A DNA stretch of 63,956 bases, the filler included, from Chrysochromulina tobinii (taxonomy: Eukaryota): assembly GCA_001275005.1 (NCBI GenBank). It is 7 parts of 7 records of this genome, joined end to end, with 100 filler letters (N's around TTAATTAATTAA, not from the genome) between each part and the next. Parts side by side here need not be neighbours in the genome. Positions count along the whole stretch, not along the records: positions 35,436 to 60,361 come from JWZX01000539.1; 6 more parts are not named here. One strand, written 5' to 3'. The position numbers were made by a program, and so were the translations under genes. This document shows positions 7,366 through 54,500 of the stretch, one piece after another. The notes beneath the pieces are model-generated. The model made no database searches, had not been told where the DNA came from, and saw nothing but the letters and a program-made list of their open reading frames with translations. Numbering within the stretch: the stretch's first letter is position 1; each line of letters begins with the position of its first letter.

Positions 7366-10300
7366 ATGCCCAAGAAGGGCGAGGACGCAGGCCGTCAGAA
7401 GTCGGCGCGGTCATCCAGCCCGCGGTCTGGACGGCCGACCGCGCCGGCCGCACTGGCGCCCAAGGGAGCTGCGCCAGCCAAAGCGGCACCTCAGACGTCC
7501 GCCCCGGTCTCCAAAGAGGCTACCCCGGTCCCTCGGGCGGCGATGAAGACGGTAGAGCCGAGTCCCGAGGCGGATGAGCCCTATGTCTACCCAGATGGTC
7601 GAACCTACCCCGTGGATGGTGTTTCGCTCTGCTGCCTGAAGCCAAACTACTTTCCACGGAGCTGGGCCATCGCTTTGATCAACGCTCCGTTCTTTGACTC
7701 GTTAGTCCTCCTGGTGATTACTGTCAACACCTGCTCGATGGTGTGGGAGTCTCCGTTGGACGAAGAAGGCACGTGGAAGTCGGGCATTATTGCTGTGCTT
7801 GAGGTCATATTCCTTTGGGTGTACACAGTCGAAATGTTCCTCAAAATGTTGGCATACGGCGTCATCGGCAACAAGCGTGCCTACATGCACGATCCTTGGT
7901 GTGTCCTTGACTTTATCGTCGTGAGCTGTGCGTGGGCCCCGATCCTGCTCGCGAACGTCGCACTTCCAAGCATGAATTCGCTCCGTGCGCTGCGGGCGTT
8001 CCGCGCGCTGCGCGCCATGAAGATCATCCCCGGCTTGAAGTTGATCATCGATAGCATGCTCGACGTGATTCCGAAGCTGGGGAACGTCACGGCGCTCTTC
8101 ATCTTCGTTTTTGTCGTCTTCGGCACCATCGGCATGGAGCTCTTCGAAGGCTTGCTGCACTACCGGTGCGCGTACGCAGGCTTCGAGCCGGGTGTCTCCG
8201 ACGAGGCCGACTTCGACTCCGAGGTTGCATGCAACCCCAAGGCGCCCGCGTCGGACTTTTGCGGCCAGGGCGAGACGTGTGCGTACTTCGAGTCGTTGCC
8301 GTTCTACGGGATGATGTCGTTCGACAGCGTGCCGCTGGCGATGGTGACGTTGTTGTCGGCCACCACCTGGGATACGTGGGAAACTTCCATGTTCTGCCTG
8401 ATGGACATCACGGGTAACTGGTGGTGCCTTCTGTACTATCTGGGCATCATCATCCTCGGAGGCTGCTTCGCCCGCAACCTGTTCCTGGCGGTGCTCTTCG
8501 AGGAGTTCACGCAGCTTGGCCGCGTCAACGTCGCCACCGAGAAGATGGAGAAGCGCGCCGCGGAGCTCAAGGGCGAGATCGAGGTCAAGGAGGAGAAGGT
8601 CGTCCCTACGGGCTTCCTTGCGGATTTGGCTAACTCCTCCTTGCTGTCTGGCGCGTCGATCTTGCTCGTGCTGGTCAACATGGTCCTGATGTGCATGCCA
8701 TACTATGGCATGAGCGACGAGTATGCGGCGAACCTCGAGCTCGCCGGCAGCTACATCACCTACGCCTTCGCGTTCGAGATGGGTATCAAGCTGCTCGGCC
8801 TTGGATGCGGCGGCTACTGGTCGGATGGGTGGAACTGCCTCGACGGCACGATCGTGCTCATGTCACTCAGCGAGATCCTCGTGACGCAGGTGCTCTCGTT
8901 CCTCGCGGACGGCTCGGTGCCGCAGATGTCCTTCCTCCGCATGCTGCGACTCTTGAGGGTCGCGCGCGCACTTCGTCTGATGAGGTCGTGGCAGGGGCTC
9001 TACAGTGTCGTCGCGACGCTGCTCCGGGTGGCTCCGAAGATCTCGTCCCTGTTCTGCGTGACCTTCGTCATCATGCTCGTCTTCACGCTCGCGGGCATGG
9101 AGTTCTTCGGCGGCATCTACACCGAGGACGCCGGCTACTCCGAGGTGCCCTGTCCCGGCGCCGTCTGCCCCAACCCTGACCTCGCGGAGAAGCCGTACTA
9201 CGCCAACTTCGACTACTTCTATCCTGGGATGCTCTCCGTCTTCATCCTGTTCACCGGCGAGTGGGTCGACTCTTCGCTAGCGGCGGCGTCCGTGCTCGGT
9301 CCGAAGGTGCTCTTCTACTTCATCCCGTGCATGTGCGTCGGCAGCTTCCTCGTGATGAACATCTTCATCGGCATGGTGCTCTCGGCCTTTGGCGAGGAGG
9401 ACGAGGAGGAAGAAGGAGAAGAGAAACCAGCCCCGGAGGAGCCTCCCGCGCCCGCCGCGCCCCACTCGGACCTGCGCGAGGAGATGCCCTGGCCGCAGGA
9501 GCACTCGCTCTGCCTCTTCGGCCCGCGCAACATCCTGCGCCGGGCGTGCGAAGGCATCGTCTCCAACAAGGTGTTTGAGCAGTTCATCCTGCTCATCATC
9601 CTCGCGTCGTCGTACTCCCTCGCCATCGACACTCCGCTGCTCGATCCGGAGTCGGCCACCGCGGCTCTTCTCACGCTGTCCAACTACATATTCACCGCCA
9701 TCTTTGTCTCGGAAATGCTCCTCAAGATCATCGCCTACGGCTTCGCCTTCACCGAGCGTGCCTACCTCAAGGACGGCTGGAACCAACTCGACTTCTTCAT
9801 TGTGGTCGTCTCCGTCACCGTCATCGCTGCCGAGGTCCTCGACATCCCCGCCCTCGCGCCCCTGACGTCGTTCCGCGTCCTGCGCGCGCTCCGGCCACTC
9901 CGCCTCATCGGGCGCATCGAATCGATGAAGGTCATCGTCTCCACGCTCATCCGCTCCATCCCCGCTGTCCTCAATGTGGGCATGGTCTACTTCTTCATCC
10001 AGAGCGTCTTCGCCATCCTGGGCATGCAGCTCTTCGCGGGCACCTTCGCGATGTGCCAGGAAGACCCCACGATCAAAGGCAAGCACCATTGCGAGGACCA
10101 GGGGTACCTGTGGGCCAACCCGCCGGGCAATGCGTTCGACGACTTCGGCCAGGCGAGCCTTACGCTCTTCTTGCAGACCTCGGGTGACCTCTGGGAGACG
10201 GAGATGTTCCAGGCAATGGCCGCCTCGGCCCCGGGCCATATCCCCGTGCGGAACGACTTCTCGCCCGCGGCGCTCTTTTCGATCGCGTGGATGTTCTTTG

Positions 10301-11616
10301 GCGCTTTCATCGCGCTCAACCTCTTCGTCGGTGCGATCGTCGAGACGTTCAACGCCATTTCCGCCGAGACGGGCGCGGGCTCGGCCATCATGACCGGTTC
10401 ACAGCTCCAGTGGGTGCAGACAATCAAGGTGGCTGTGCAGACGAAGCCCACCAAGGGCGTCGTGGCGCCCAGCGGCGGCTTGCGCCTGTGGGTCTTCAAC
10501 CTCGTCATGTCGATCAGCTTCGACGCCTTCATCATCGTCATCATCCTGCTCAACACCGTCTTGATGGCGTCCAAGTATTATCAGTTCGAAGAAGATGGGT
10601 GGCCGAAGACGTACTACGACTACGGCATGCGTTTCTTCACAACCGTCTACTACGTCGAGTGTGCGCTCAAGATGTTCGCCATGGGCCCCGGCGGCTACTT
10701 CTCCGTTGGCTGGAATCGTTTCGACTTCACGATTGTCTGCACCGCAGCCCTCGACGACCTGTCCGTCGACGTGTCCGCGTTCCTGCCCATCTCCCCCTTC
10801 CTTCTTCGCGTACTCCGTATTATCCGCATCGTGCGCATCCTGCGCATCCTCAAGGGAGTCAAGGGGCTCCGCGACCTCGTGACGACCGTCATCCTATCTG
10901 CCCCTCCTGTCTTCAACGTGTGCCAGCTCCTCGTCATCGTCATGTTCATCTTCTCCGTCCTGGGCATGTCCCTGTTCGGAAATATGGTCCTCCAGGACAA
11001 CGTCGAGTCTCACGCCAACTTCCAGACGGTGCCTAACGGCATGCTCCTCTTGCTGCAGACGGTCACCGGCGACGGCTGGACGCTGCTGCTCCAGGACACG
11101 AAGGTCCAAGAGTCGTCGGGCCTGTGCACGGAGGCGGAGGGCAACTGCGGCACGTGGGCCGCTATCCCCTACTTCGTTGCCTTCCAGCTCGTCGGCACCC
11201 TGGTCTTCCTCAACCTGATGATCGCCGTCATTCTCGACAACTTCACGTCGCTCTCGGAGCAAAACCCGGACCTCGTCTCGCCAACTGACGTCGACGGCTT
11301 CATGGACGCGTGGTCGGAGCTCGACCCCGAGGCGAGCAACACGCTCCCTTCGGCGCGCTTACCCGAGCTCATCATGAAGGTACCGCCGCCTCTCGGCGTC
11401 ATGGGCGATGGCGACGAGGCCGACGCCACTGCACTCGCCAAGAAGCTCAAGGTCGACGCCAAGGGTGGCGTCGTCAAGTTCGCCGACGTGCTCCTCGCCC
11501 TCTCCCTCAAACGCTACCTCGACAAGTCTGACCTGACTGAGTCGGAACTCATCAAGCTCGAGAAGGACGTGGAGCTGCAGCTCACCAAAGCGCCGGTCGA
11601 GGAGTTCACCGCGTAA
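7366..11616 (+). CDS. Four-domain voltage-gated cation channel (Cav/Nav superfamily alpha subunit), single exon
   Basis: Four 6TM repeats with S4 segments (LRALRAFRALRAMK, LRMLRLLRVARALRLMR, FRVLRALRPLRLIGR, LRVLRIIRIVRILRILK). Pore loops TTWDTW, FTGEW, TSGDLW, VTGDGW. C-terminal EF-hand-like FMDAWSELDP...PPPLG. First ATG at 7366. Confidence 0.96.
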   Translation: MPKKGEDAGRQKSARSSSPRSGRPTAPAALAPKGAAPAKAAPQTSAPVSKEATPVPRAAMKTVEPSPEADEPYVYPDGRTYPVDGVSLCCLKPNYFPRSWAIALINAPFFDSLVLLVITVNTCSMVWESPLDEEGTWKSGIIAVLEVIFLWVYTVEMFLKMLAYGVIGNKRAYMHDPWCVLDFIVVSCAWAPILLANVALPSMNSLRALRAFRALRAMKIIPGLKLIIDSMLDVIPKLGNVTALFIFVFVVFGTIGMELFEGLLHYRCAYAGFEPGVSDEADFDSEVACNPKAPASDFCGQGETCAYFESLPFYGMMSFDSVPLAMVTLLSATTWDTWETSMFCLMDITGNWWCLLYYLGIIILGGCFARNLFLAVLFEEFTQLGRVNVATEKMEKRAAELKGEIEVKEEKVVPTGFLADLANSSLLSGASILLVLVNMVLMCMPYYGMSDEYAANLELAGSYITYAFAFEMGIKLLGLGCGGYWSDGWNCLDGTIVLMSLSEILVTQVLSFLADGSVPQMSFLRMLRLLRVARALRLMRSWQGLYSVVATLLRVAPKISSLFCVTFVIMLVFTLAGMEFFGGIYTEDAGYSEVPCPGAVCPNPDLAEKPYYANFDYFYPGMLSVFILFTGEWVDSSLAAASVLGPKVLFYFIPCMCVGSFLVMNIFIGMVLSAFGEEDEEEEGEEKPAPEEPPAPAAPHSDLREEMPWPQEHSLCLFGPRNILRRACEGIVSNKVFEQFILLIILASSYSLAIDTPLLDPESATAALLTLSNYIFTAIFVSEMLLKIIAYGFAFTERAYLKDGWNQLDFFIVVVSVTVIAAEVLDIPALAPLTSFRVLRALRPLRLIGRIESMKVIVSTLIRSIPAVLNVGMVYFFIQSVFAILGMQLFAGTFAMCQEDPTIKGKHHCEDQGYLWANPPGNAFDDFGQASLTLFLQTSGDLWETEMFQAMAASAPGHIPVRNDFSPAALFSIAWMFFGAFIALNLFVGAIVETFNAISAETGAGSAIMTGSQLQWVQTIKVAVQTKPTKGVVAPSGGLRLWVFNLVMSISFDAFIIVIILLNTVLMASKYYQFEEDGWPKTYYDYGMRFFTTVYYVECALKMFAMGPGGYFSVGWNRFDFTIVCTAALDDLSVDVSAFLPISPFLLRVLRIIRIVRILRILKGVKGLRDLVTTVILSAPPVFNVCQLLVIVMFIFSVLGMSLFGNMVLQDNVESHANFQTVPNGMLLLLQTVTGDGWTLLLQDTKVQESSGLCTEAEGNCGTWAAIPYFVAFQLVGTLVFLNLMIAVILDNFTSLSEQNPDLVSPTDVDGFMDAWSELDPEASNTLPSARLPELIMKVPPPLGVMGDGDEADATALAKKLKVDAKGGVVKFADVLLALSLKRYLDKSDLTESELIKLEKDVELQLTKAPVEEFTA

Positions 11617-11780
11617 GAAGAAGGGGGTACAAGAGGGCTGTGGGTACGTGGCTATACAACAGGGGACGTGCCCGAGTGGTTTGGCGAGGGGACATTTGCC
11701 TGCCGACCGGGTTTTCGTTTTTTTGCTAGAGCGCAGTGGCCGTAGAGGCCGCGGGGTAATGAAAATGATGCATGTGATCG

Positions 11781-11954
11781 TCAAGTCAAGTCAAGTCAAG
11801 TCAAGTCTATACATAATACATAAACAACAGACAACCATGCAGTATTAATGCATATACGGTCCAGCCTATCGAATGTGCTCCGGAAGCCAGCAGGGGAGGA
11901 CGGGAGTCGATGGAGATGGCGGAGGGGGATCCATCTAGACTTGACTTGACTTGA
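11781..11954. repeat. Inverted (TCAAG)n arrays bounding a 174-bp segment
   Basis: (TCAAG)5-TCTA at 11781-11809 and TAGA-(CTTGA)3 at 11936-11954: 19-bp perfect inverted match. Confidence 0.85.
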
Positions 11955-12085
11955 GCGTGAATCTTGGACTCACTTCACACCCCTTCGAAACTCTTTCACA
12001 GCCAATGTTTAGAATTCGACACCCAAGACACCGGACCGGCGTACATACGGATGCGGTTAACACTAGCTTTCACACGGCGCACAAA

Positions 12086-13657
12086 ATGCTGCATGCTCGC
12101 GGCTCGGGCTCTTGGCTCGAGCTCGAGGACACGAATGTCGAAACCAAAGTTCGTACGGTGACCCCATGGTTGCAGTTGACCTTCGTGTGGTTGGTCTTTG
12201 TTGTCACGGCTGGCGTGTACCAGGTGCCTGCTACATTGCTCGGCGGCCACTGTGCCGATTCGACAGCGCCGTGCTCAATAGCCGATGAACTTGGTCTGTC
12301 CCCAGCACTGCAAGGCTGGCTGCCAGCGTCTTTCCTTCTGTGCAAAGGCCTCTTGGCGCTGCCTGCAGGCGTGGCGCTGCACGCCTATGGTCCTCGGCGC
12401 TGCCTGGTGCTCGGCATTGCCATGCTTGCCATCTCGACGGCCCTGTTCGCCGTCGCCCGCTCTTTTTACATGCTCCTGCTCCTTTATGTCGCCTTTGGCA
12501 TTTCTTACTCGCTGTCGGGCCTAGTTCCTCTTGTGGTGTTCGTGAATGGCTGGTTTTCCGCGCAGCAGAAGGCCACCTCGATCGGCCTCCTCGTCACAGC
12601 CTTTTCCGCAGCCGGCGTTTTTTGGCCGACCCTCACCGCATGGATAGCAGAGCGGCACGGCTGGCGCCAGGCCGCGGCGCTCCTGCCCTGTGCCGCAGTT
12701 GCGTTCGCGCTGCCGATAGCTCTATTCCTATTGCGGGACGGACGGGTAGCGGCCGTTGACGATGCGACGATAGAGCTCAATGCATGCAGCTCAATCGCTC
12801 ACCCAATGCATGCAGCTGTGGAATCGGGCACTGAGCTCAATGCATGCAGCTCAATCGCGAGCTCAATGCATGCAGCTGTGGAATCGGGCACTGCAGAGGT
12901 GAGCCGCGCTCACCATGGCGCCTCCATGCATGCAGCTGTGGAATCGGGCACTGCAGAGGTGAGCCGCGCTCACCATGGCGCCGTGCGCTGCGCCCGTGGT
13001 GGCTTCCATCGAGGAGCCGACTGCTTGCCCGCATGGGTGTGCGACCCAGTACTGTGGCATCTGGCGGCCATGTCCTTCGAGATCCTTTACATCATCAACG
13101 CGGTCCAGGCTCTGCTCATCCTGTTTCTCTGCAGCGAGGAGGTGGGGATGACGCTCACGAGTGCGGGCATGTACAGCAGCCTGATCTTCGCGCTCAGCCT
13201 CGTGGCCAAGATCGCCTTTGGGCCGGCGCTCGATCGGAGCTCCACTCGCCGCCCTGCTGCCCTATTCGGCTGCTCGCTCCTCGCTCTTGGCTGCGGGCTC
13301 ACGCTTCGCGTGCAGCGCGCACCGGGCGGGGGTCCCTTCGAGGTGCTCACCGCCAGCTCGCACCCGCAGCTGGTGGCCTTCAGCGTGTGCTTTGGTCTCG
13401 GATACGGCTCCAGCTTCACGCTCGTGCAGTCGCGCGCGGCCGCTCTCTACGGTCAGCTGGAGGGCTTCAGCAAGCTGCAGAGCACGCTCGCGGTCGCGCA
13501 GTATGCGGGCTCGTTTCTGGGTGTCCTCGTGACAGCGCAGCTGCGGCAGTCGACGGGCTCTTTTGTCCAGCCGTTTGGCATCCTCACACTCTTGGGGATG
13601 CTCTCGTGCGTGCACTGCTGGTTTGTGTGTTCTCCTGGAGGGCCGCGAGGACTATAG
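12086..13657 (+). CDS. Major facilitator superfamily transporter (about 12 TM)
   Basis: Two hydrophobic helix bundles, MFS-like AGVALHAYGPRR and FGPALDR motifs, central hydrophilic loop. Start uncertain (ATG 12005 or 12086). Confidence 0.85.
   Translation: MLHARGSGSWLELEDTNVETKVRTVTPWLQLTFVWLVFVVTAGVYQVPATLLGGHCADSTAPCSIADELGLSPALQGWLPASFLLCKGLLALPAGVALHAYGPRRCLVLGIAMLAISTALFAVARSFYMLLLLYVAFGISYSLSGLVPLVVFVNGWFSAQQKATSIGLLVTAFSAAGVFWPTLTAWIAERHGWRQAAALLPCAAVAFALPIALFLLRDGRVAAVDDATIELNACSSIAHPMHAAVESGTELNACSSIASSMHAAVESGTAEVSRAHHGASMHAAVESGTAEVSRAHHGAVRCARGGFHRGADCLPAWVCDPVLWHLAAMSFEILYIINAVQALLILFLCSEEVGMTLTSAGMYSSLIFALSLVAKIAFGPALDRSSTRRPAALFGCSLLALGCGLTLRVQRAPGGGPFEVLTASSHPQLVAFSVCFGLGYGSSFTLVQSRAAALYGQLEGFSKLQSTLAVAQYAGSFLGVLVTAQLRQSTGSFVQPFGILTLLGMLSCVHCWFVCSPGGPRGL
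12773..12982. repeat. Overlapping 60-bp in-frame tandem duplications in MFS central loop
   Basis: ELNACSSIA x2, MHAAVESGT x3, AEVSRAHHGA x2; 60-nt period visible in DNA. Confidence 0.9.
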
Positions 13658-13781
13658 TTGATAGCTGGACCGGGCTCTGCGGTAGACCCTTCGGTGTTCG
13701 GATCCGCACCTGCACCGTGACATTACTTTAAGTGCTTCGACGAACGACGTTCGAGTCTCGCCTTGGGTGTGTTCTCACAAC

Positions 13782-14285
13782 TCACGTGAAGCCGATACCA
13801 AGCTCGTAATACGAGCTTCCACTTACGATCACCTTCCCGGCGTCCTGCAGTGCGCGCATCTTCGGCCGGAATTCTTTGAACGCGATTGACTTGCGATGGG
13901 CACCGAGGTAGTCTTCCTTCGACCGATATCTCTCAAGGATGACGTAAGAGAGGTTATCCTTGTCGCTCTGGGCCGCCTCGTAGGCGTAAAGAAACGGCTC
14001 GTTGTTGAGGCAGTATGATGCGGCAACCGACCACGCAGCGAGTAGAGATTTTGCAGACACGTCGTCACTGAAGCGCAGACCAACGATGAGCATGAACGCT
14101 TTTTCGCCGACAGCCTTGGAGTGGCCCGTTGAGGTCTGTGGTCCAGCCGAGAGGTGCACGGCGCCCAAGGTGAACAGCGAAGACAATATGGCCACCGCAG
14201 CGAGCTTGTAAAAATGCGTTTTTGGATTCGGTTCCTTTGCAGCGGCCCAGGGCTCCTCGAGACTCCAAACGAGTGGCTTCGGCAT
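13782..14285 (-). CDS. ABM (antibiotic biosynthesis monooxygenase)-like dimeric alpha/beta barrel protein with N-terminal TM helix
   Basis: NEPFLYAYE...YVILERYRSKEDYLGAHRKSIAFKEFR pattern; hydrophobic LAAVAILSSLFTLGAV; probable ATG 14285. Confidence 0.75.
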   Translation of the reverse strand: MPKPLVWSLEEPWAAAKEPNPKTHFYKLAAVAILSSLFTLGAVHLSAGPQTSTGHSKAVGEKAFMLIVGLRFSDDVSAKSLLAAWSVAASYCLNNEPFLYAYEAAQSDKDNLSYVILERYRSKEDYLGAHRKSIAFKEFRPKMRALQDAGKVIVSGSSYYELGIGFT

Positions 14286-14871
14286 GTTACCGGTAGAAGT
14301 TTCGGTCGCGGTTCTAGTAAAATGACATCGGGGGAGACACACTGCGAGCGGTAGGGGGGTCATTCTCCCGGTGAGGGTCCGTTAACCTGCTTACGGAACA
14401 TTCCTAGAGACCGGTAAGTGAGCTCCGTCGAGATACCGGCGGATCCCTGGGAGATCCGAGAGNNNNNNNNNNNNNNNNNNNNNNNNNNNNNNNNNNNNNN
14501 NNNNNNTTAATTAATTAANNNNNNNNNNNNNNNNNNNNNNNNNNNNNNNNNNNNNNNNNNNNCGCCGCCGCCACCGCCGCCGGCCGCGCCGCCTGCCGAG
14601 CCGCCTGCCACCGCGGGCCGCCACGCCGCCTGCAGGCCATCTGCTGCCCCCCCGGCCGTCGCCGCCCCGCCGCTGCCGTCGACACAGTTTTAACATGAGA
14701 AGCCCCGTGACATCAGCATAGGTAAATGCTGTCTTGCAAAGAGCATGCATCTAGGACTTCTCCAAAAGCGGTCGGGATGCTGCTTTGACCTCTTTTACTC
14801 CGAAACGTGCCGGCACCGGCATTCAATCGTAATTTTTCTATTGCGCTGCCGAGTCACGTGTGTGTCTTTCC

Positions 14872-15714
14872 ATGGGCCAAAGCCAATCCCTAGACTTCTG
14901 CTGCACGACCCGCAAGAACAACGAAGCTACGGTCAAGGACATCGCATGTGCCAAAGCCGCTGCCGCGGAGGCCCGCGACAATGCTAAGGCAGAATGCCTC
15001 GTGCCGGTCACAGATGGAAACACCTTCTCCCCCATCAAGGAAGCCTCGCCATTCGAATCAGTTCATGAGCTCCTGGTCGGACCTCGTAAAGCCACGACCA
15101 CGCCGCTGACCGGGTCGCCGGATTCTGTCGGAGGAGACACGTTCAAGGGGCTGCCGCCAGGCAACTATGATGACATGTCGGAGGAGGACAAGGTTGAGGC
15201 GTTTCGTGCGTGTGTGCCCTCGCGCTCGCTCGAAGAGCTGCGCACGATCCTTGGCGACCACGGCGGCGACATCTGCAAGGCGTACGCGGCCATCTACCCG
15301 GCGGGGACGCCACGTAGCTCGTTGAGCCCAAGCAGGCCAAACAGCTCAGCCGCACCCGCCGCCGCGCCCGCCACCGCAGCTGAGTCGGCCCCCTTCAACT
15401 CGTTGCGCGAGAGCCCGGTTGCCTTCAACGTTTTCGAGGCCTCCAGTTCGAGCGCCGTGGCCGCGCCCACGCCTGCGGACAAGGTGGAGAAGAAGCCCAA
15501 GGAGGAGAAGAAGCCCAAGGAGGAGAAGAAGCCCAAGGAGGAGAAGAAGCCCAAGGAGGAGAAGAAGGCCAAGGAGAAGAAGGCCAAGGAGGAGAAGAAG
15601 CCCGAGGAGGAGAAGAACAGAAAGCCAAACGAGGAGATGCCGGAAGAGGAGAAGCCCAAAGAGGACGAGAAGAAAAAGGAGGAGCCAATATTCCTAGAGA
15701 CCACCGATATCTGA
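14872..15714 (+). CDS. Putative myristoylated/palmitoylated protein with CUE/UBA-like domain and KKPKEE repeat tail
   Basis: Starts MGQSQSLDFCC; DKVEAFRACVPSRSLEELRTILGDHGGDICKAYAAI resembles CUE; 18-bp AAGAAGCCCAAGGAGGAG repeats at about 15484-15615. Confidence 0.7.
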   Translation: MGQSQSLDFCCTTRKNNEATVKDIACAKAAAAEARDNAKAECLVPVTDGNTFSPIKEASPFESVHELLVGPRKATTTPLTGSPDSVGGDTFKGLPPGNYDDMSEEDKVEAFRACVPSRSLEELRTILGDHGGDICKAYAAIYPAGTPRSSLSPSRPNSSAAPAAAPATAAESAPFNSLRESPVAFNVFEASSSSAVAAPTPADKVEKKPKEEKKPKEEKKPKEEKKPKEEKKAKEKKAKEEKKPEEEKNRKPNEEMPEEEKPKEDEKKKEEPIFLETTDI

Positions 15715-15772
15715 GAGAGGAGAAGGCGGTCCCACCGTCGCCGCCTTGCCGCGGCACTGCAACGAGTTACGA

Positions 15773-15869
15773 TGCGACAGCAGCGACAGCAGCGACAGCA
15801 GCGACACAGCGACAGCAGCGACAGCAGCGACAGCAGCACAGCAGCGACAGCAGCAGCAGCGGCAGCGGC
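15773..15869. repeat. (GCGACAGCA)n / (GCA)n low-complexity array
   Basis: Directly visible 9-bp and 3-bp periodicity downstream of stop 15714. Confidence 0.9.
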
Positions 15870-16316
15870 ATCGCCGGCGACTGCAGCAAGGCAGAGGCCT
15901 GACCTCGTACTAGGTTCAATGCCTACATCGTTCAACCTGCCTACATCGTGTTCGCCATGCCTATCTTCATTGTATCCGGTAGACAAGACGGTCCGCCTGT
16001 CGCTGTGGGTGAGACACTGAATCAGCATGAATCAGAGGATGTTGCCATCGTCGTGTGAGATATGTGATAAAAATATGTGAACCGCAGAGGGTGCAGGGTG
16101 GCATCTTCGTACTTCGAACCTTAGCCGTGCGTGTCTGGGTGACCCTCTATTGAATATGAATATTGAATTGAATTTACAACTCATGTTACAACTCTTTACT
16201 CTTTCGTCTTTCGTATCTCAACGCACCGTTTGGCGTTTGGCGTTAGAAGCGTTAGATCTTCACAAAAGCCCCGTTGGCTACATGTACCGTGGCGGGGGGC
16301 GTGGCGGGGGCCGTGC

Positions 16317-35435: not shown

Positions 35436-36146
35436 GGCTGCTGCAGCGGCTCGGGCGGTAACGTGGAGCTGGCCGGCTGCTGCGGCGCCTCAACGACGTC
35501 TTCCGGTACAAAAGCCGGCTCGGAGTTTGACGCCGCTGCATCCGCCATCTCTATGAGGCGCCCGATGAGCACGGGCTTGGTGCCGTCGGTCGTGAAGCCA
35601 AGCTTGCGCAGCTTCCAGCGCAGCTCCTCAACGCGCATCCGACTGTAACGCTTACGAAGCTCATCAGCACGCTGCCCGTCGACGGGCGCAGCGTGCGACG
35701 CGTGCTCCTCCGCGCTGCCAAAGTCACCACCCGCGCCGATCAGCGCGCCTAGTACGGGAGCGCGCTTGCTGTTGAGTCGGGAGGCGATCGACGCGCTGGA
35801 GGTGCTTGAGCGCAATGGGGGCGTCGAGATACAGGGCGTCCTCGATGAACTGGATGAGCTGGTAGAGCGAAGGCTCGTTAGAGCTCGGCCACGTGTAGAC
35901 TGGGTCGTTCAGCTTGCACACCATCTGAAGCGTCGAGGCCATGATCGTGTGCATGGGATAGATGCCATCCTCGGAGGTGGCGAGGTCCATCAGATCCTTC
36001 AAGGTGCCCATGAGTCGGGCTGCATCTTGCGACAACGTGACCACCTCTCCGTCTCGCGCTCGCACGCGTATTGCTATTGGCTCCTCGTGTTTGGCCTTCT
36101 TTGCCGCGGGCGCCTCCTCGGCCGACGTTGCAGGCCGACGTCGCAC
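35436..36146 (-). pseudogene. Skp1-like + SAP-domain gene with a +1 frameshift near 35790 and no clean start
   Basis: IRVRARDGEVVTL...TLKDLM...ALYLDAPIALKHLQR in one frame; IASRLNSK...GDFGSAEE and SAP motif MRVEELRWKLRKLGFTTDGTKPVLIGRL in the next. Upstream in-frame ATG (36158) is followed by TGA. Confidence 0.7.
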
Positions 36147-41954: not shown

Positions 41955-44900
41955 ATGCGAAGCTCGCACGACTACACACAGCTCACCGACGAGGCCGGTC
42001 TCGAACATCGTGAGTCAGCTGAGCCCGCCGCGCCTCCGGGCAGCGACACAGCGCGAGCTCTGCAGCCGGTGTTCGCGGCCCTCCAGCAAAGGCTCAAGGA
42101 TGCGGCAGCCGCACGGCCGTTAGGCGCGGGCGGGACGGTTTCGATAACAGTCGGCCGTGAAGGCGCGGCCGAACGCTGGCTCGTCGACGCGCGTGAGGGA
42201 GTGGCACCGGATGCGGTCATCGTGCGGAAGCCCATGGGTGCCGCCGACGATGCGGTGGTGCGCATTGTCGTGCCCGAGCCGGCGGACCTGCTGGCGCTGC
42301 TCGAGCGCCGGCTACCACCCTTTCGCGCTCTCGCGCAGCGGCGTCTCGTCCTGCGCGGCGATCTCGCTCAGCTGCGGTCGATGCAGTGGCTCTTCGGCGG
42401 CGGCGTGAGTGAGGGTGGCGAGGGTGAGAGCAGCGCGGTGTGCGTACGCGTGCTGCACGCGGACGCGTCCAAGGGGCACGGTGAGTACGTGCTCTCCGTT
42501 GAGGAGGGTGCAGTCTCGTGGCTCATCGCGCGTCGGTGGAGCGAGCTCAAGGCGCTGAGTGCCGAGCTATCGCTGCTCTACGGGCGTGGCTCGGGCACTC
42601 TTGAGCTGCAACTTCCCACAGTGCCAACGTCGTACCGCAGCTCGACCTCCGCTACTCTGCTCAAGGAGCGCTCGCGCCAGATGACCGAACACCTCGCTGC
42701 CCTGCTCCGCCTGCTCCACTGCTCGCCGCGCAATGGCGACGGACCGCCGGTGCTGCTCCGCTTCTTACGACCAACTGACGAGGACACTCGACTCGCTACG
42801 GCTGCACTGCCTCGCCACGCCCACGCGGTCGCCGCGGCCGGCCACGTGGCTGTGGAAGGCCACGTGGCTGTGGGCGGCCACGTGGCTGTGCCTCCCCCGA
42901 CCGCCCTCAAGGGCGGCGGCGGCGAGGCCAACGACGTGCCGCGAGGCCTTCCACCCAGCCCGACGAAGGCATCTTCACGGAAGGAGATTCCGATGGCAGA
43001 GCTACTGCTCCGGCGGCGGATGGAACTTGCGGAGGCGTCCGTCCTCGAGCTTGGTCGCCGGGCTGAGAGGATGAATGCCTGGGCCGGACGCCTCGGCTGG
43101 CTCGCCGCGCTCGTGTGCCTGCTCTCGCTGGTCTATGTCAACGTCACAGTCTATGTCAATCTCGCCAACGGCGGTGCGTGGCTCTCGGTGCCACGTGGGC
43201 CGCGTGACTTCGCCGCCGCACTGGTCGGCAGCACGAACACGACGGTCGCTGCCTCCTCCTCGCCGGCAGCAGTCGCAGACGCTGTACTGGTACCGTCGAC
43301 CGGCGCTGTCGGGAGGCCGGTCGGAGCGGGGCTGCTGCTCCTGGGGGTGCTGCTGTCGGCGCTCTGCTTCTGTTGGCGCCAGATGGACCATGAGAAGGCG
43401 TCCCTGTATTGGCGGTACGTCGCCGTCTTCACCCTCTTCTGGCGCGTCTACTTGCACTACCGATGGGCAAGGGTGCGCGCACACCGAGTGGCGCTCGCTA
43501 CGGCGCTCGCCGAGGGGCGCGCCTTCGACGGCCAGAGTCATCTGGAGGAGGGCGAGGACGCGAGCGACGCGGTGCGTGAGCTCTGGGAAGAGGCTCACGA
43601 CGGCGCGGGCAAGATCCTGTTCCACCACATGAGCGAGCTCGGGGGGTTGTGGGTCAAGACGGGCCAATATCTCGCTTCGCGTGCCGATATGGTGCCCAAG
43701 GAGCTCGGTCGTCACCTTGCGGCGATGCTCGATTCAAACAAGCCGAGGCCGCTCGCCGAGGTGGTCACCACGCTGCTCGACGAGCTCGGCGAGGCGAAGC
43801 TAGCGAAGATCGCCTCGTTCGACCCGATCCCGATCTCGACCGCCTCGATTGCGCAGGTGCATCTGGCAACGCTCGGGGACGGACGGCGCATCGTACTGAA
43901 GCTGCAGCACGTCGAGGTGCGCGAGAAGATGACGCAGGACCTCGTCCAGGCCGAGGCGCTCGCTGATACGCTCTACTGGCTCGAGCCCCAGCTCGATCTG
44001 AAACCGATGATGACGGAGATGCACCAGCTCCACCTGTCCGAGCTCGACTTCACGGCCGAGGCGACCAATCTGAGAGAGGTGGGCGCCAACCTCGCGCGCC
44101 GTCGCATCAGAGCCACCATACCAACCGTCATTGACGAGCTCTCGACGCGTCGGTGCCTTGCCATGGGCCTGTGCGAGGGTCATTCGCTCAAAGATGCGCA
44201 ACAGCTCAAGTCGCTCGGCATCGACTGCGCGCTGCTCGTGGCGCGCGTGTGCGAGGCGTGGGCGGTGCAGATGTTCGCCGACGGCGTCTTCAACTGCGAC
44301 CCGCACCCCGGCAACCTCCTGGTGCGCCCGGATCCCACCCTTGGTCCGGTACCCGTGCTGCTCGACTTTGGGTTGTGCAAGCGGCTCTCCCTCGAGCACA
44401 AGCTCGCGTTCTGCCGTATGGTGGTCGCACTCTCATATCTCGATGCAGACGGGCTCGTCGGTTCGCTCGAAACACTCGGGCTGCAGTTCCCGCCCGACAT
44501 CGAGCCGTTCACGCTGATGAAGGGCCTCGCCTTCACCTTCAGGGACACCGAGGCTGACGCGGGCCAGGCGCGCTCGCGCATCCGCACGAGGCTCAAGAAG
44601 GCTCGCGCCGACCGCCAGAAGATCGTCGAGAAGCGCAAGGAGCGCGAGGAAGCCGCGCGCCGTGCCGGAAAGCCAGTGAAGCCGCAGCAGCAGGTACCGA
44701 CGCTACCAGGCGTGGTCGCCTACTTTTATCGCACGCTCATGATGCTGCAGGGGCTCGCGACCAACCTGGGTGTCTCTCTGTCCTTCATGCCGATCCTCTC
44801 AGGATGGGCGGCAAAGACCCTCCTCGAGCACCGCCGCGCGCAGCTCCAGCCGAGCGCGCCGCTTCGCTCGCCGCCGCCGAGCGCGCCGCCGCGCTCGGCG

Positions 44901-45744
44901 TTGCAGGAGCGCGCCCTGCGCCTGCTGCACGCGCTCGCCGACACGGACGAGCTACTCGGCGCTCAGGTGAGCCTCGTACGCCGCGGCGTTGTGCTTGTCG
45001 ACGCGGCCGTTGGGCGCTTGGGCGCTGTCGACCCGCGCCCCGTGCGCACCAATTCGCTCTTCCAACTCTTCGAGGCTGGCTCACCCGTGCTCGCGACCAT
45101 CGCGCTGCAGCAGGCGGTCACGCGAGGCGGCGCGCTCTGGCTGCAAACGCCGCTGGCCAACCTCTGGCCACCTTTTGCGCAGAATGGGAAGGAGAAGCTC
45201 ACATTGCTCCATCTCCTCTCGCACCAGACCGGCCTCCAGCATGCCTACCCAGCCGATGCTTCCCTCAACGACCTCATCGATACTGGCGCGATGGTGGCGC
45301 ACGTGGCGAGCGCGCCCATGACGGCGCCTGGCGCGCCCACAGGCGGCAGCAGTGCCGACGGCGGCGGGATGCGGTACGAGGGGCTGCCTTGGGGCTGTGG
45401 GCTCTGGGGTGTGTTGCAAGCGTGCACCGGCCAGCCTCTCCCCGCGCTGCTCGTCGGGCGCATCTGTGCGCCGCTCGGTCTACCAGTAGAACCCGAGGCG
45501 GCCGAGCTGCTGCTCAGTGTGCCGAGCAGTCCGGCCGCCGCCGCCGCCGCGTGCGAAGCGCGTGTCGTCACGCATGACGCGTCCGCCCTGCTCAAGCGTG
45601 CGGGGCTGGACCTCTCCGAGGTGCTCACCACGGCGTCCGCGCCTGAGGACGAGGGTGATGGACCCTCCGACGCGGATGTGGAGGCTGGCGTGGCGAGCAC
45701 GCCAGGAGGAAACGGTAGCAAGGGCAGTAGTGACGGCGGTGGCA

Positions 45745-45784
<40 letters not shown>

Positions 45785-46361
45785 GATGATGATGATGATG
45801 GGGCCGCAGGTGCTGCTCGCGCCGCACTTCCTCAACATGCAGAAGCTGCGCACCGCGACGCTACCGGGCGTGTCGATGCACGGCACGGCGCGGGCGCTCG
45901 CCGTCTTTTACGATGGAGTGGGCAGCGCCAAGCTGCTACCCACCGAGGTGGTGTCAGAGCTGCCGCGCCTTGCGAGCTTCGTCGCTCGGGGCCACACAGC
46001 CACGCCAGCCTCGCCAGCCTCTGCACGCACCAACCCCTCGCCCGGGAAGCTCCCTCCCTTGCCAGCCGTGAGCGGCGGGGCGAGCAACGCCAAGGGCGTC
46101 CGTTGGGCGGCCGGATTCCAGTTGGGAGAGGCTGCCGTCGAGATGCCGGTGACCGGCGAGAAACTTCTAGTCAGCGTGCTCGGGCACGGCGCCGTCGGTG
46201 GCAGCGTGGGGCTCGTCGTGCCAGCGGCGGGCCTCGCGCTTGCTGTGACCGTGAGCAAGCTCGCGCCTCATCGGCGCGCGAGCCAACGGCTCATTGAGAT
46301 GCTCCTCGATGAGTTTGGCGTGCGGCTCACGCGGAGCGAGGGGCTGCTGCACGATGCCTGA
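41955..46361 (+). CDS. SCP2-like + PX-like + 2TM + ABC1/UbiB atypical kinase + beta-lactamase-like fusion
   Basis: ABC1: LGGLWVKTGQYLASRAD, TASIAQVH, ELDF, DPHPGN, LLDFG. Beta-lactamase: LLHLLSHQTGL, GHGAVGGS. PX: ARRWSELKAL...LLRFL. SCP2: PFRALAQRRLVLRGD. Confidence 0.9.
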
Positions 46362-46772: not shown

Positions 46773-49700
46773 TTATTGCGCCACCTCGACCTGTAGATCT
46801 AACGGCGTCGGCGATCGCTCCGACTCGACTGGTTCCGAGGCGGCCGGGGGCACAGCGTGGGCACCCGCGTTGCCGTGGGCGCCCGCGTTGCCCACCGAGG
46901 GCAATCGTGTGGTTGGCACCGCGACCGTCGCTGCCACCGTCGCCGCCATCGTGGCGCCCGAGGCGGCGGCGGCGGCCGACGGAGGGAGCGAGAGCGAAGA
47001 CGTCGGCGAGGGGGACGCGCCCGATCCAAGCAAGCGCTGCTCATCTTGACGCGTCAGCGGCGCATCGAAGACGTCATACACGACGCGCTTGAGGAAGCGG
47101 TCAGCATACACACTGGGAGGCACCGCTGAGATGCCCTGGCCGTCGTGCCACGGCGGCAGCCACACCTTACAGAAGTGCTCGAGTTGCTTGCGCAGCGACC
47201 ACGTCTGAAGCACGTCGACGAGGCCGAGGTAGTAAGACTGCGGCCCTTCGACGATGATGGCGTACTCAACAGAGTGCGAGTACGGGCGGTTCGGACTCTC
47301 GGGTCGGGACTGGCAAGCGGCGGCTGGGGCGGCGGCTGGGGCGGCGGCTGGGGCGCCGCCGCCCGCGCTGCCACGTGGGTGCGAAGACACGAGGAGAGGC
47401 GAGACGGTGCCTAGCACGGCGCCCGCGAGCGAGCACGAGGCACGCGGACTGACGCCGCTGCCCTGTAGAGCGCCGTATTGAGCGCCCGCGAGCGAGCATG
47501 AGGCACGCGGACTGACGCTGCTGCCGCCGCTGCCGCTGCTGCCGCCACTGCCATCGCGAACGATCGGGAACAACGAGAGGGAGGGCGCCGCAGTGAAGGG
47601 CGCGTGTGGCGCGTGCGGGCTGCTTGTCGGCTCGGTGCCGTCGATGGGCGTGAGGTGCGTCTGTCCTCCATCGGTGTTGACGACGAAGCGGCCGCGGCGC
47701 ACCCCGACGACGAGGGAATAGTCCATCGTGTGAAGCGTGTTCGACAAGAAGGCGACGTCGGTGGCCATCTGGCGGCGCAGCTCGGCGAGACGGCTCGATG
47801 AGAGGTGGAGGCAATAGTTGAGGTCGTTGTCCTTCTTGACGGTGTGGGGATCTTTGGGCCGCGAGGAGTTGCGATTGACCCACGAGCCCTTGAGGTCATA
47901 CCGCTCATCCATCTCGGGCAAGTGAGACTCGGCCAACGGTCTCATGGGCGCGTGGTAGAAGACGTTGCCCATCACGACGAATGTCATCGTGGTGTTGTAC
48001 ATCGAGATCGAGTACAGTCCGTAGAACTTGGTCAGGTACGAGCCCGGCTGCGCGCGTAAGTACTCCGTGTACTCGGGCGCGTGAGCCGTGAGGATGGCCG
48101 CCTCTGAGCTGTCGATTGTCTTGACAATCAGGCGCCGATCGTGCGTGTAGTACATGAACGAGCCGCTCTTCCCCTCGGAGAATCGCCAGCGCCCACCCCG
48201 GCCCTCCTTGGAGCGTCGGATCCACACCTGATGAGGCAGGCAATCAAGGGTGTCATCCGAGGTCATCCGAGGTCATCCGAGGTCATCCGAGGTCATCCGA
48301 GGTCATCCGGGGTCGTCAGGGGTCGTCCGAGGTCATCCGAGGTCATCCGAGGTCATCCGAGGTCATCCGAGGTCATCCGAGGTCGTCAGAGGCCATGGCC
48401 AGAGGCCCTTCATCCACACCTGGCCGCCGGAGAGCAGGGAGGCGAGATAGACGCTGGGATGTACGCCCTCGGCCTCACGCATCTGCCGAAAGGGCCCCGG
48501 GTGATACTCGACGAACTTGAAGGGCGGCCCGCCGCCCGCGAAGAAGGCGATCCATGCCGAGGACGAGAAGAAGCTACACACCTGATGAGGGAGGCAATCA
48601 AGGGCGTCATCAGAGGTCGTCAGAGGTCATCAGAGGTCATCAGAGGTCATGCCGAGGACGAGAAGAAGCTACACACCGACGCCGTGAGACGCGAGAAGAG
48701 CCAGCGCCAGGGCCGGCCGTGCCCGCGCTCCTCGAGCATGCTGGCATCGATGCACCCGACACAGTCTATGTCCGGAGGCACGCGCCGTGTCGGTGCGTCG
48801 GCCACGCGCGGGAGCAGCTGCTGACCCGACGCTGAGAGCCGTTGCTCGTCCAGCGCGCTGCCGATCGACAGGTGCACGGCGCCGAAGCCGCTCGCGCCGT
48901 CCGTGCGCGGCATCACGGTGCGTGTGGACGAGATGCGAGGGCTATCGGTGTCGGGGCGGATGGAGGGGAGCATGACGATGCGCTGCGCCGAGTGCTCCCT
49001 GGGCGTGCCCGCCGCCTCCTCGGCCGCCTCGACCGCCAGCCGGATGCCAAGCTGCGTGTATGAGAGCCATTCCTCCCGAAGTGCCTCGGGCATGTCCCAC
49101 GCGCCGATCGCCTTGCGCTCGCGCGGTCCGCCGCCTGGGCTGTGCAGCCCGCGCTCCGCCTTGATATACCGGTGCGCGGTCAGGTGCCACACGACCGCGT
49201 TGAGCCCCCCCTTGCTCGCGATCGTCAGGCCCATCAAGGACCAGAGTGCGCCCGCTTGCCAGTCCTTGCCGGCAGAGCCCCAATGCCACATCGGGTAACA
49301 GTGCACCATCAGGGCGAGGTAGATGATGGAGGCGGCCATCCAGTACACGACGCCGGTGCCCACATACAGGATCAGGTCCTTGATCGTCTGCAGCCGCACC
49401 TCGTACGTCGCCTGCAGCCCTTCCCACAGGCGCGCCGTCGCGAAGAGCACCGACAAGATGCAAAACGTGAGGATGGCGATCACCCACACATAGAAGAGGA
49501 ACCACATGGCGGACTGTTCAGTACTCCAGTCAGTGGCGCGGTCCCACACGTGGCTCGTGGTGCAGTTCTCCGACGGGACGATCGCCGACTCATCCTGACG
49601 AATCCAGCAGATATTGATCGCGCTCGCCCCTTGCATGTTGGTCGCCAGCAGGACGACCGCGGAGGCGAGCGAGCTCAGCCACACGGCCGCGTGGTACTTG

Positions 49701-50173
49701 GGCTGGATGGGTGAATAGGGCCGAAACGGCTGCGTGAGCGAGAGGCACAGGTCGAGGCAGATGACAAGCAGCCACATCTCCGAGGCGAACGCGGTGAATT
49801 GAGTGTAGAAGGACATCGCTGAGCACAGCCCCTGATACTCGGGGAGCTCGCCCCAGAATGTTTGATCGTCGTTGACCGAAGCCTGCACGAAGAAGGTGAC
49901 GAGATATTGGAGCGCGAAGAGCAAATCCGTGACCGTGCGCCAGAAGAGCAGCGAGAGCGGCGGCCGGCGCACGCTATGGTACGTGCAGTACTTGTAGATG
50001 ACGTTCGTGCATGCAAGGCACGAGACCACCGCGCCGGCGAAGAGCGTGGCCTGGGTCAGCACGACCGAGGAACTGGTGGGAATCTCGGGCCCGATCGGCT
50101 CGAATGGAGCCGACGGCGGAAAGGGCTGCGACGGAACAAGGTCCGGGGGTATGGTAAGGTCGGGCGACGCCAT
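46773..50173 (-). CDS. GPCR-PIP kinase fusion (7TM + phosphatidylinositol phosphate kinase); exons 50173-48677, 48581-48420, 48227-46773
   Basis: Seven hydrophobic helices with ICWI motif; PIPK motifs FKFVEYHP, SEGKSGSFMY, IVKT, YDLKGS, KDND, MDYSL, GLVDVLQ. Two GT-AG introns join the three ORFs in frame. Confidence 0.93.
48228..48419 (-). other. Intron (192 nt, phase 0) made mostly of ~14 copies of GGATGACCTC
   Basis: CAG|GTGTGGAT at both junctions; ends CCCTTGATTGCCTGCCTCATCAG. Confidence 0.92.
48582..48676 (-). other. Intron (95 nt, phase 0) whose first 29 nt duplicate the start of the downstream exon
   Basis: CATGCCGAGGACGAGAAGAAGCTACACACC at 48553-48582 and 48648-48677; 10-bp repeat filler; ends CCCTTGATTGCCTCCCTCATCAG. 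Confidence 0.9.
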
Positions 50174-51544: not shown

Positions 51545-54500
51545 ATGTCTTCACCTTCGCGCTCTCCGTCGCGCAAGAGCCCGAGGCTGCTCGCCCGGCA
51601 GGAGGCGGCGCAGCAGGCAGCCAGGTGCATCGCCTCTGCCGTGCGCAGCCGTGTGTGGTGCGAGGCGCGCACCCTCGACGAGCCACCTCGGTCCTACTAT
51701 TACAACTTGCAGTCTGGCGAAACGGCGTGGACGCTGCCAGAGGGCGCGATCCTGCGTTCCGCCGGGCGCGATTCGCTCATCCCACGCCCGGGCGACCCCA
51801 TCAGCAGGCAAAGCTCCTTTGCCCGCTCAAGCTCTATGGCCAGGCAAAGCTCCTCCAAGACTCGCTCCTCAGTGGCCTCCGTGACTGAGGAGGCGACCGG
51901 CGACAACGGAGCCGCAAATACCGTCTCGCCAACAGAGGACGCCGTGGTCGCTGCCGTGGGCGCTGATGCCGTCGAGGGCGGTCCTCCGCTCGAGCTGCAC
52001 GAGGTGCTGCAGCTCCTCTTCTCATGGCTACAGGATACTCGCGCCCTCTATTCGGAGAGCCGTGCAGACCTTGAGCAGCTGCGCACGGCACACGCCGACG
52101 ACGTACGAAGCGCGCAAGGGGCCATCGCACAGCTCGCGCGCAAACACGCGTCCTACACGAAGTGCCTCAAGGAGGAGCTCGCTCTCGTGCGCAAGGAGGC
52201 GGCCACAGCCAAGGAGGCCGCGGCCGCGTCCATGGCGGCCGGATCGCCCAGGCGGCGCGCGAGCTTCGACGAGATGAATGCGAGCTCGTGGGCGGCGGAG
52301 GTGGAGCGGTTACGCGATGGGCTGCGCAAGGCAGAGGCTCAGCTCGTCCATGAGCGCGAGGCTCGCGAGCTGCTGCTGCAGGAACAGGCGGAGGCCGATC
52401 GCCTCCGCGCCGAGGCGGCCGCTGCGCGCGAGCAGGCTGAGGCGGCCGAGGCGGACGCGGGCGCAGAGAGGGGGAACGAGGCGCTGCACGAGGAGCTCGC
52501 ACAGCTGCGGGAGCAGCTTTCTGCCAGCATCTCCGCCGCATCCGAGGCGGCTGAGGCGCGCCAAGTCGCCGAGACTGACGCTCAGGCTGCGAGGCACGAG
52601 GCCGCTGCAGCGCGGACTCAAGCGCTGATGGCAGAGGCGGCGGCCAAGGTCGCGGAGGCTGCCGCCAGGGAAGCAGAGGTATCCGCCAGAGCTGAGGCGG
52701 CGGCCTCGTTCGAGGAGGCGCACGCGAGCGCGTTGGCGGCCGTATCCAAGTGCCAGGCAGACACGGAGCGGGCATCGGGCGGTCTCATCCGTAGCGAATG
52801 GCGCTTCAAGGGGGAGCGTGCGAAGGTGCGACTCGCCGAGGCGAAGGCGATGGAGCTTTGGGTGCCCTCGGACCGCGCGCATGCAATTGCTCACCACGGC
52901 GCCCTCTCTCCCCACAGGTGCGACTCGCCGAGGCGAAGGCGAGCGAGGCGGCGGCGCGCGCAGGCGCGGTGAGCAATGCGCTCGAGCACCTGCGCCTCAA
53001 GCATGCCAAGACGCGTCGAGGAGCTCGACGAGTACAAGGGTAGCGTGCGTGTCCTATGCAGACTCCGCCCCCTCAAGCCCGGCACCGAGGAGGCGCGCGG
53101 GCCGTCGGCGGTCGTCGCGCCGCCGCCGCCTGAGGGCGGTCCGAGCCGCTCGGTAGTAGTGCAAGCACCGAATGCGAGCCAGACAGTGGGAGGCAGCATC
53201 AAGACCTTCGAGTTTGACGGCGTCTTCGCGCCGGAGGCTTCTTCGGCGAGCGTCTTCGAGGAGCTGCAGCCGCTCACGCGCAAGGTCGCCGCCGGCGCAA
53301 CCGCCGCCATCCTCGCCTACGGCCAGACCGGTAGCGGCAAGACGTACACGGTGAGTGCCCTGCACAATCTCGCCCTGCGCGAGCTCTGGGCCGGCGAAGC
53401 CGCCAACGGGGGCTCCGCCGCCCTCGCTGTTAGCCTGGCAGAGGTGTACATGGATGAAGTGCGCGACCTCGGTCGCCCGGCCGACCCGATCCCCGCGGCC
53501 GGTACTAAATTCGCCTTCGGCAGCGCCGTGGCCAGCGCCGGTGTCACTCCGCGCTCGTCGGAGGTGGATGCAAGTACGCTGACGTGGACCACCGTGACGA
53601 GCGCCGAGGCGGCATGCGCCCTCGTGTCGAGCGCGCTCGAGAGGCGCGTGACCGCCGATAACGGGCTCAACTCGGTCTCGAGCCGCTCGCACTTGATCAT
53701 CTTCTACGCGCTGCTCGGCCCGCGCGGTGAGCGCAAGGGGCAGCTGGCCCTCGTCGACCTCGCCGGTTCCGAGCGGCTCGGTCGTACCGAGGCAACGGGT
53801 GGTCTGCGCGACGAGGCCATCTCGATCAACCGATCGCTCACGGCACTCGGCGACGTGCTGCACGCGCTCGTGGGCAAGACGGAGCACGTTCCCTACCGGC
53901 ACTCGAAGCTGACCACGCTCCTCCAGCCGTGCCTCAAGCGCGGTGCGCGCGTCGCCCTCATCATCGCCGCGTCACCCTCCTCGGAAGATGCCCTCGAGAC
54001 TATTCAGACTCTCGGCTTCGGCGTGCGCGCGCGCAACGTGCACCTTGGCCCTATGGCGAGCACGTCGTCGGCGGCTGGCGGCGCTGCTGGGGGTGGGCTC
54101 CAAAAGGAGGTCGCACGTCTCCAAAAAGAGCTCGTCGAGGCCAAGGCGCAGGCAGCTGCTCATGAGCGGAGCCTGGCGAGCTTCAAGCAGCAGGCGAGCT
54201 CGACGGACGAGGCGGCCAAGGGTAAGAGTGAGGCGATCAAACGTGCGGAGGCCAAGGCAAAGGAGGCGGAGCACGCTCTCAAGCGCAGCGAGGCCGCCGC
54301 GCACGCGGAGCGCTCGCGCCTTCTCAAGGAGATGGAGGAGCTCCAGCGAAAGCTTGACGTCGCCACGAGCCGCGCGCGCCGTCCTGAGCGTCCTGAGCGT
54401 CCTGAGCCTTCCGCCCCGGCCGCTCTGCCGCAAGCCCTCTCCGCGCCCACCACGGCTCGGCAGCCGCGGCTGGCGCCGGCCGAGGCGAAGAAGGAGGCTC

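Follow-up and report, generated by a model that had tools for sequence, protein, structure and literature searches.

The window analysed in this study is a stretch of 63,956 nucleotides from Chrysochromulina tobinii (GenBank assembly GCA_001275005.1), joined from seven parts of seven records, of which positions 35,436 to 60,361 come from JWZX01000539.1. Its minus strand carries a gene that encodes a GPCR-like domain fused to a phosphoinositide kinase and that is interrupted by two introns, here called A and B. The features of the gene, together with one further predicted intron on the opposite strand, are as follows.

46773..50173, minus strand: host gene, 7TM (GPCR-like) and PIP5K fusion of the GPCR-PIPK type, about 1037 aa
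50173-48677, 48581-48420 and 48227-46773, minus strand: exons of the host gene (ORF ends)
48582..48676, minus strand: intron A, 95 nt, GT-AG, phase 0, with a 95-nt skip in RNA contigs of two of four runs
48648..48677, minus strand: upstream copy of the intron A duplication (30 nt, exact, 100% identity), 29 nt of which are the 5' part of the intron with its GT donor
48601..48647, minus strand: 10-bp repeat tract of intron A (about 4.5 units) and a 10-nt variant shared only with intron B
48582..48600, minus strand: family-wide 19-nt 3' module of intron A (predicted branch site, pyrimidine tract, CAG)
48553..48582, minus strand: downstream copy of the intron A duplication (30 nt), made up of the first bases of exon 2 and the final intron G
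48228..48419, minus strand: intron B, 192 nt, GT-AG, phase 0, with in-frame stops and a 192-nt skip in RNA contigs of all four runs
48412..48422, minus strand: upstream copy of the 11-nt direct repeat of intron B (CAG of the exon end plus 8 nt from the GT donor)
48252..48396, minus strand: 10-bp repeat tract of intron B (14.5 units by TRF)
48228..48246, minus strand: family-wide 19-nt 3' module of intron B, which departs from the common form by one change
48220-48230, minus strand: second copy of the 11-nt direct repeat of intron B
52826..52917, plus strand: intron of 92 nt predicted from sequence, with a second type of end module and a 25-nt duplication that starts at its GT

In the host gene, the N-terminal 7TM region and the C-terminal PIP kinase share one reading frame, as expected of a GPCR-PIPK protein; the kinase was identified by Pfam (PIP5K, E 6e-65), and 7tm_1/7tm_2 scored below the cut-off. 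Four GPCR-PIPK proteins of C. tobin are described in the accessible text of PMC5784254. When the exons are joined without introns A and B, the frame stays open, is colinear with the homologues and is 75% identical to the homologue P0001, in which the peptide duplicated around intron A is present as a single copy. A distant homologue, P0013 (on a 73-kb contig; its cluster is about 51% identical), is without an intron at both the A and the B site. At the B site of P0013 the reading continues in a shifted frame, which fits a one-base indel and no intron there. Elsewhere in the window, a plus-strand ORF of 1468 aa (41955-46361) combines an ABC1 kinase-like domain with a beta-lactamase-fold domain, and an 11-bp family-like repeat tract without a terminal module lies on the minus strand at 2038-2124, at the end of a PKS ORF.

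The RNA and DNA data confirmed that A and B are genuine introns. They are members of a large intron family in a freshwater haptophyte that is likely of the Chrysochromulina parva/tobinii type: of 10 window proteins looked up, 4 were represented in the protein collection, and one groups with C. parva and C. tobinii proteins in a 90% cluster. C. tobinii CCMP291 itself presumably carries these introns. At intron A, beside the skips observed in two runs, one RNA contig reads into the intron and another ends before it; the four RNA runs may represent a single campaign. In four DNA runs, contigs cross the exon border into each of the two introns with 0-1 differences, and the joints listed for these runs, all but 44 of the total, include none that lacks an intron. 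In the RNA runs, the summed contig depth over the repeat of intron A (48603-48639) was 10,000-16,000, compared with 5-8 over the gene; repeat-bearing RNA or carried-over DNA must therefore be abundant. In the DNA runs, the summed depth over the repeat was thousands of times that of the flank, a figure that does not represent a copy number.

An earlier note, made from the sequence of this window, had described the two introns as sharing a conserved 29-nt 3' end and a 10-bp repeat in about 14 versus about 5 copies. Both observations held: the ends at 48228-48256 and 48582-48610 on the minus strand differ at 2 positions in 29 nt, and TRF gave 14.5 and 4.5 units of 10 bp for introns B and A, respectively, with exact GATGACCTC(T/G) units numbering 10 in intron B and 2 in intron A. 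The 18-nt core of this end occurs twice in the window, compared with 0.14 occurrences expected. The upstream intron, which the note had ended at 48650, extends to 48676. The 29-nt end also proved not to be the hallmark of the family, since only 19-20 nt are conserved family-wide: among the 173 distinct ends in the matches listed, the 29-nt form is private to A and B, and conservation drops beyond position -20. The branch site placed in the 19-nt module is a prediction, with its A near position -17. The absence of terminal inverted repeats (TIRs) was borne out, as no conserved TIR was detected; the one inverted repeat seen, 7 bp long and internal to intron A, is weak (z -1.8 and -2.7 for the two strands), and intron B has none.

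What the note did not contain is the direct repeat of the downstream exon at the start of each intron, 29 nt in A and 8 nt in B when the shared G or CAG is excluded. Since each intron opens with a copy of the exon that follows it, the GT donor is target sequence. This variable-length target duplication supplying the donor is the strongest clue to the mechanism. The earlier reading as a whole is partly supported.

Concerning the distribution of the family, the 19-nt end was found in at least 142 metagenome loci in unrelated genes, including those for PKS, kinesin, ProRS, a complex I subunit, RME-8 and nicastrin, in agreement with the proposal of a widespread acceptor module. Among the matches listed there are 196 distinct contexts, and the end is followed by GT in 116 and by GC in 37 of them (153 in total). 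As the loci were chosen by exact match to this end, the conservation of the module is partly built in. The note had asked whether the copies are always in sense orientation at intron 3' ends: according to a codon model, 93 of 103 copies are in sense, a proportion about equal to the accuracy of the model itself (45 of 49 held-out pieces), and of 139 fuzzy copies of the module, 136 share the strand of the exact match. Reading frames join across the removed intron in 29 of 33 copies, which, with the RNA skips of A and B, indicates that the family is spliced out of exons. Similar introns thus occupy many non-paralogous sites and are removed by splicing, as introners in the broad sense do. Their 5' parts are locus-specific copies of exon sequence, so that similarity at both ends, as used in the published pipeline, is not observed. 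Most genes in the window are long ORFs of up to 1793 aa without modules, and many of the metagenome loci are clusters of family introns; the distribution across genes looks patchy. At eight loci (L006, L011, L014, L019, L041, L062, L088 and L115), whole introns, each with duplication and module, follow one another head to tail at one site, forming compound introns with several possible acceptors.

A search for an autonomous partner, also suggested in the note, gave nothing of the kind: no RT, GIY-YIG, transposase or HUH family was detected in 224 of the 227 locus ORFs (three duplicates excluded) or in the 23 window ORFs. Searches of viral collections with three patterns gave no match to the first module; the second module gave a single match, located at the end of a chimeric-looking contig and not taken as evidence. 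Prokaryote genomes gave 11 matches compared with 8.7 expected by chance, none of them with family repeats. A hammerhead, snoRNA or group II origin of the module was considered and dropped, with two sub-threshold Rfam hits in the region and none in 20 loci.

The duplications were scored in 194 contexts, of which 181 had enough flanking sequence and 108 were terminal ends. An upstream duplication scoring at least 10 was present at 44 of the 108 terminal ends, compared with 10 of 218 control AG|GY sites. At the other 64 ends, the duplication may be short like that of intron B, decayed or absent. A second search, blind to lengths such as that of intron B, gave 121 duplications, of which 41 belong to clean single introns with the first module. 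In these 41, the duplication measures 13-55 nt (median 25) and its copies are 88-100% identical, being perfect in 13; the intron is 50-163 nt long and the element 22-144 nt. Taking all introns together, the duplication ranges from 8 nt in intron B to 55 nt. Where the duplication meets the repeat, microhomology averages 1.33 nt compared with 0.54 nt by chance (p 0.0014), a short overlap that rests on the 18 of 41 introns that were testable, namely those with filler periodic from its first base.

Duplication length and filler length are anticorrelated in the 41 clean introns (rho -0.40, p 0.01), and only 1 of the 41 is shorter than 62 nt compared with 4.9 expected, as if the repeats padded the introns to a minimum size. 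In 18 of the 41, the repeat unit lies within 3 changes of the first decamer of the module, and most of the others are out of register or of other types; judged by their sequence, the repeats look like slipped copies of the putative branch-site decamer. The slippage-like synthesis proposed in the note is plausible for the repeat tract and leaves the insertion itself unexplained. Addition of repeats by a telomerase-like activity was also considered, and slippage was preferred as the simpler process because units differ between introns and 18 of 41 lie near the first decamer. Variation in repeat number, which the note had also pointed out, was seen when the same site was compared between assemblies (80 nt of repeat between L002 and L004, 10 nt between L055 and L122), a difference that may reflect strain variation or assembly collapse. 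The 25 pairs of overlapping or homologous loci compared contained no empty allele and differed only in repeat number.

The same footprint was observed with a second end module, which consists of a fixed part followed by a variable pyrimidine tract and CAG and which is represented by 61 copies in loci L001-L138. In 11 clean cases, a duplication of 21-37 nt starts at the donor, and 56 of the 61 copies lie on the strand of the first module. A third type (L016, L033 and L062) leaves this footprint with the duplication on the other side: in what looks like a mirror arrangement, it appears to bring its own GT donor together with the second module and to take its AG from a duplication of the upstream exon. 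The words found in the repeats of the first module recur in the 5' part of this third type. The presence of a second module with the same footprint points to a general process.

Introns of the same locus also resemble each other beyond the module. In 70 same-locus pairs from 24 groups, with the internal copies of compound introns removed, neighbours agree at 5.97 of the 12 positions that precede the module, compared with 4.25 in other pairs, a value reached in 0 of 5000 permutations. At the exon start after the AG, at least 5 nt are shared in 12 of the 70 neighbour pairs compared with 4.6% of other pairs, and the mean was reached in 13 of 5000 permutations. Introns A and B themselves share 10 of the 12 nt before the module and 5 nt of the exon start. 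The effect is also present within culture assemblies under a looser filter. Most neighbour pairs are nevertheless unlike, and L113 supplies 6 of the 14 high pairs; later gene conversion, repeated protein domains (L129, L016/L017) or the contribution of a single locus could also account for the likeness. The extra 10 nt common to A and B point to local copying. The note had treated a local and a mobile origin as mutually exclusive, and this opposition does not hold: each description applies, because the 19-20-nt module is widespread and the extra 10 nt are local.

Based on these data, we propose, with a probability of roughly 0.55, that the family consists of recently gained spliceosomal introns that arose by break-primed copying, with the 3' end of a family intron already present, frequently in the same gene, as the template. 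After a cut at G|GT or AG|GT, the antisense strand would pair with the AG|GT junction of a donor intron present as unspliced RNA or as DNA; synthesis would copy the module and a variable number of repeats and then halt; and the new end would be joined to the exon again 8-55 nt further on, with microhomology of 0-6 nt. Rejoining would duplicate the stretch of exon, whose GT would become the donor. The repeats may start as slipped copies of the branch-site decamer and later expand or contract, and selection would retain sense copies at donor-like sites with a length above about 60 nt. Candidate enzymes would be a retroelement RT acting in trans or a repair polymerase of the Pol-theta type, and an RNA template is somewhat favoured over DNA. 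The first copies would have to come from elsewhere.

Synthesis primed at the AG|GT junction of an intron already present would account for the fixed end, for the GT at the start and for the shared bases past the AG. The ragged end and the duplication would follow if synthesis stops within the repeats and the end rejoins further along the exon, and the likeness between neighbours if nearby donors are preferred. A fixed end, a ragged end with microhomology and a variable duplication are described as marks of nick-primed synthesis for LINEs and Penelope-like elements in the accessible part of PMC9977147. The sense orientation and the GT starts are equally expected from selection alone, and in 7 of the 41 clean introns the exon base before the donor is not G, which fits poorly with pairing at the junction. 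An excised lariat, with its end at the AG, was considered as the template because conservation stops near the predicted branch site; it was ranked lower, since the bases common to neighbours include exon positions past the AG. A bolder form of the proposal, possible but on balance doubtful, is that these introns multiply without any transposon of their own: an exon break would be mended from the 3' end of a neighbouring intron in the unspliced transcript, any intron end could seed copies in cis, the duplication would serve as donor and the branch-site repeats as padding.

Several features of break-primed copying would also be produced by a short non-autonomous non-LTR or Penelope-like (Chlamys-type) retroelement inserted by TPRT through an autonomous partner, which would leave a fixed 3' end, 5' truncation and a variable target-site duplication (TSD). 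The family does combine a variable TSD with one fixed and one truncated end, and the parallels extend to LINE and PLE insertions flanked by variable TSDs, to short, 5'-truncated Chlamys insertions (both in the accessible part of PMC9977147) and to head-to-tail arrays of non-autonomous Chlamys elements (excerpted from PMC8557442), tandemly re-duplicated introns being common here; in addition, a Pavlovales introner with Chlamys-8 as its best hit is classed as non-LTR with the entry "co-opt 5', carry 3'" in the tabulated part of PMC12130899. We regard this origin as unlikely all the same, since an all-against-all search of the locus flanks (first 60 rows per side) gave no longer shared body, the ORFs scanned contain no RT or GIY-YIG family, at least two unrelated modules show one footprint, and a master copy does not predict likeness between neighbours. 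The hammerhead ribozyme of canonical PLEs, mostly absent in Chlamys, has no Rfam match in the region or in 20 loci. A Replitron-like HUH element would have one precise end at a dinucleotide target, a fuzzy other end and a variable TSD; Replitron-1 inserts in this way and in fixed orientation, and one Replitron-like protein is reported from C. tobinii (both in the accessible text of PMC10288648), and intron A has a weak terminal hairpin. The hairpin is missing in intron B, however, there is no 6-bp direct repeat at both termini of the kind Replitrons carry, no HUH ORF was present among the locus and window ORFs scanned, and Replitron insertions avoid coding sequence, where the family introns sit. 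The combination of variable TSD and fuzzy end is itself termed non-canonical for Replitrons in the same part of PMC10288648. We consider this origin very improbable.

The introns might also be old, with ends homogenised by gene conversion and 5' parts overwritten by local slippage, and without any recent gain. The likeness between neighbours, the variation in repeat number and the internal re-duplications show that family introns mutate by local copying, and empty alleles are absent among the listed joints of the four DNA runs and the 25 locus pairs. An old origin leaves unexplained the position of the duplication, which begins at the donor GT, and its identity of 88-100% to the downstream exon, as well as the lack of both introns in the distant homologue P0013, which may speak for gain; the likelihood of an old origin appears low. 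A classical MITE-type introner moved by a DDE transposase would agree with a carried 3' site and a 5' site taken from the TSD, as in Symbiodinium and Polarella classes 4/5. Such an origin is hardly credible, as it is contradicted by a TSD without fixed length (13-55 nt in the 41 clean introns, 8 nt in intron B), by the lack of conserved TIRs and by elements that vary from 22 to 144 nt.

How new introns originate is a long-standing question, and the anatomy of this family, half private and half shared, records both ends of the insertion. According to the accessible part of PMC12130899, about 72% of introner families are unclassified and the classified ones are mostly DNA transposons; mass intron gain has so far been tied to transposon-derived introners, the classified ones mostly with fixed short TSDs. 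The note had suggested a comparison with published introner catalogues, and the 2025 survey lists 0 families for C. tobinii in the portion available (PMC12130899). The published pipeline, as described in the accessible text of PMC9860276, requires similarity at both intron ends and removes short-repeat families, and is thus likely to hide this family; the same class of introns would likely be overlooked in other genomes too. The accessible portions of the C. tobin genome paper (PMC4580454) and of a 2024 review (PMC11282704) contain no mention of such introns, and our literature searches, with subscription papers outside their reach, found no description of the family. If exon breaks are indeed mended by copying from neighbouring introns, this would be a genome-scale route of intron gain that current introner searches filter out.

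Among known systems, the introners of Symbiodinium and of Polarella glacialis (classes 4/5 and 6/8/10) likewise place similar introns in unrelated genes (Gozashti 2022, Fig. 2B; bioRxiv 2022.06.06.494994, as figured), and they also take the donor from a target duplication and carry the acceptor (accessible part of bioRxiv 2020.10.14.339549). They differ in a characteristic TSD of 3-8 nt per class, compared with the variable 8-55 nt found here (same part of bioRxiv 2020.10.14.339549), and the Symbiodinium introners have TIRs, whereas the present family has no conserved TIR and a 5' half private to each intron. The marine Chrysochromulina introners from Tara MAGs (Gozashti 2022, Fig. 2C) share the genus label, the short length and the lack of TIRs; the family figured there, compared by its description, shows the opposite arrangement, with a TSD of 4 bp, a 5' site that is carried and a 3' site that is co-opted. 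The entry "co-opt 5', carry 3'" is also given in PMC12130899, as tabulated, for fam1 of Pavlovales sp. CCMP2436 (non-LTR, Chlamys-8 hit) and for Emiliania huxleyi fam24 (10-bp terminal direct repeats). With 7 and 5 copies, respectively, and no variable long TSD in the tabulated rows, these two were compared by description, and the Pavlovales family with the Chlamys hit is the nearest haptophyte case in the accessible part of the 2025 survey.

Beyond introners, Replitron-1 of Chlamydomonas reinhardtii has, as here, one precise end, one fuzzy end and a variable TSD that includes the target dinucleotide; it is a kilobase element with terminal direct repeats and an HUH transposase, is depleted in coding DNA and is not reported to make introns in the accessible text of PMC10288648. 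Models that derive new introns from double-strand-break repair or from tandem duplication (Daphnia; Yenerall and Zhou) interpret direct repeats as staggered breaks and have a duplicated exon stretch supply a splice site, as in the present family; the accessible parts of these reports describe no filler that recurs genome-wide, whereas here the same few intron ends recur (PMC4202315, PMC3443670). Our data indicate that the family is real and is a variant of the introner kind with a variable duplication, and its mechanism is testable, both cultured and wild strains being in existence. It works like an introner that carries its 3' site and co-opts its 5' site, yet has neither the fixed TSD nor the TIRs of the classes that do so.
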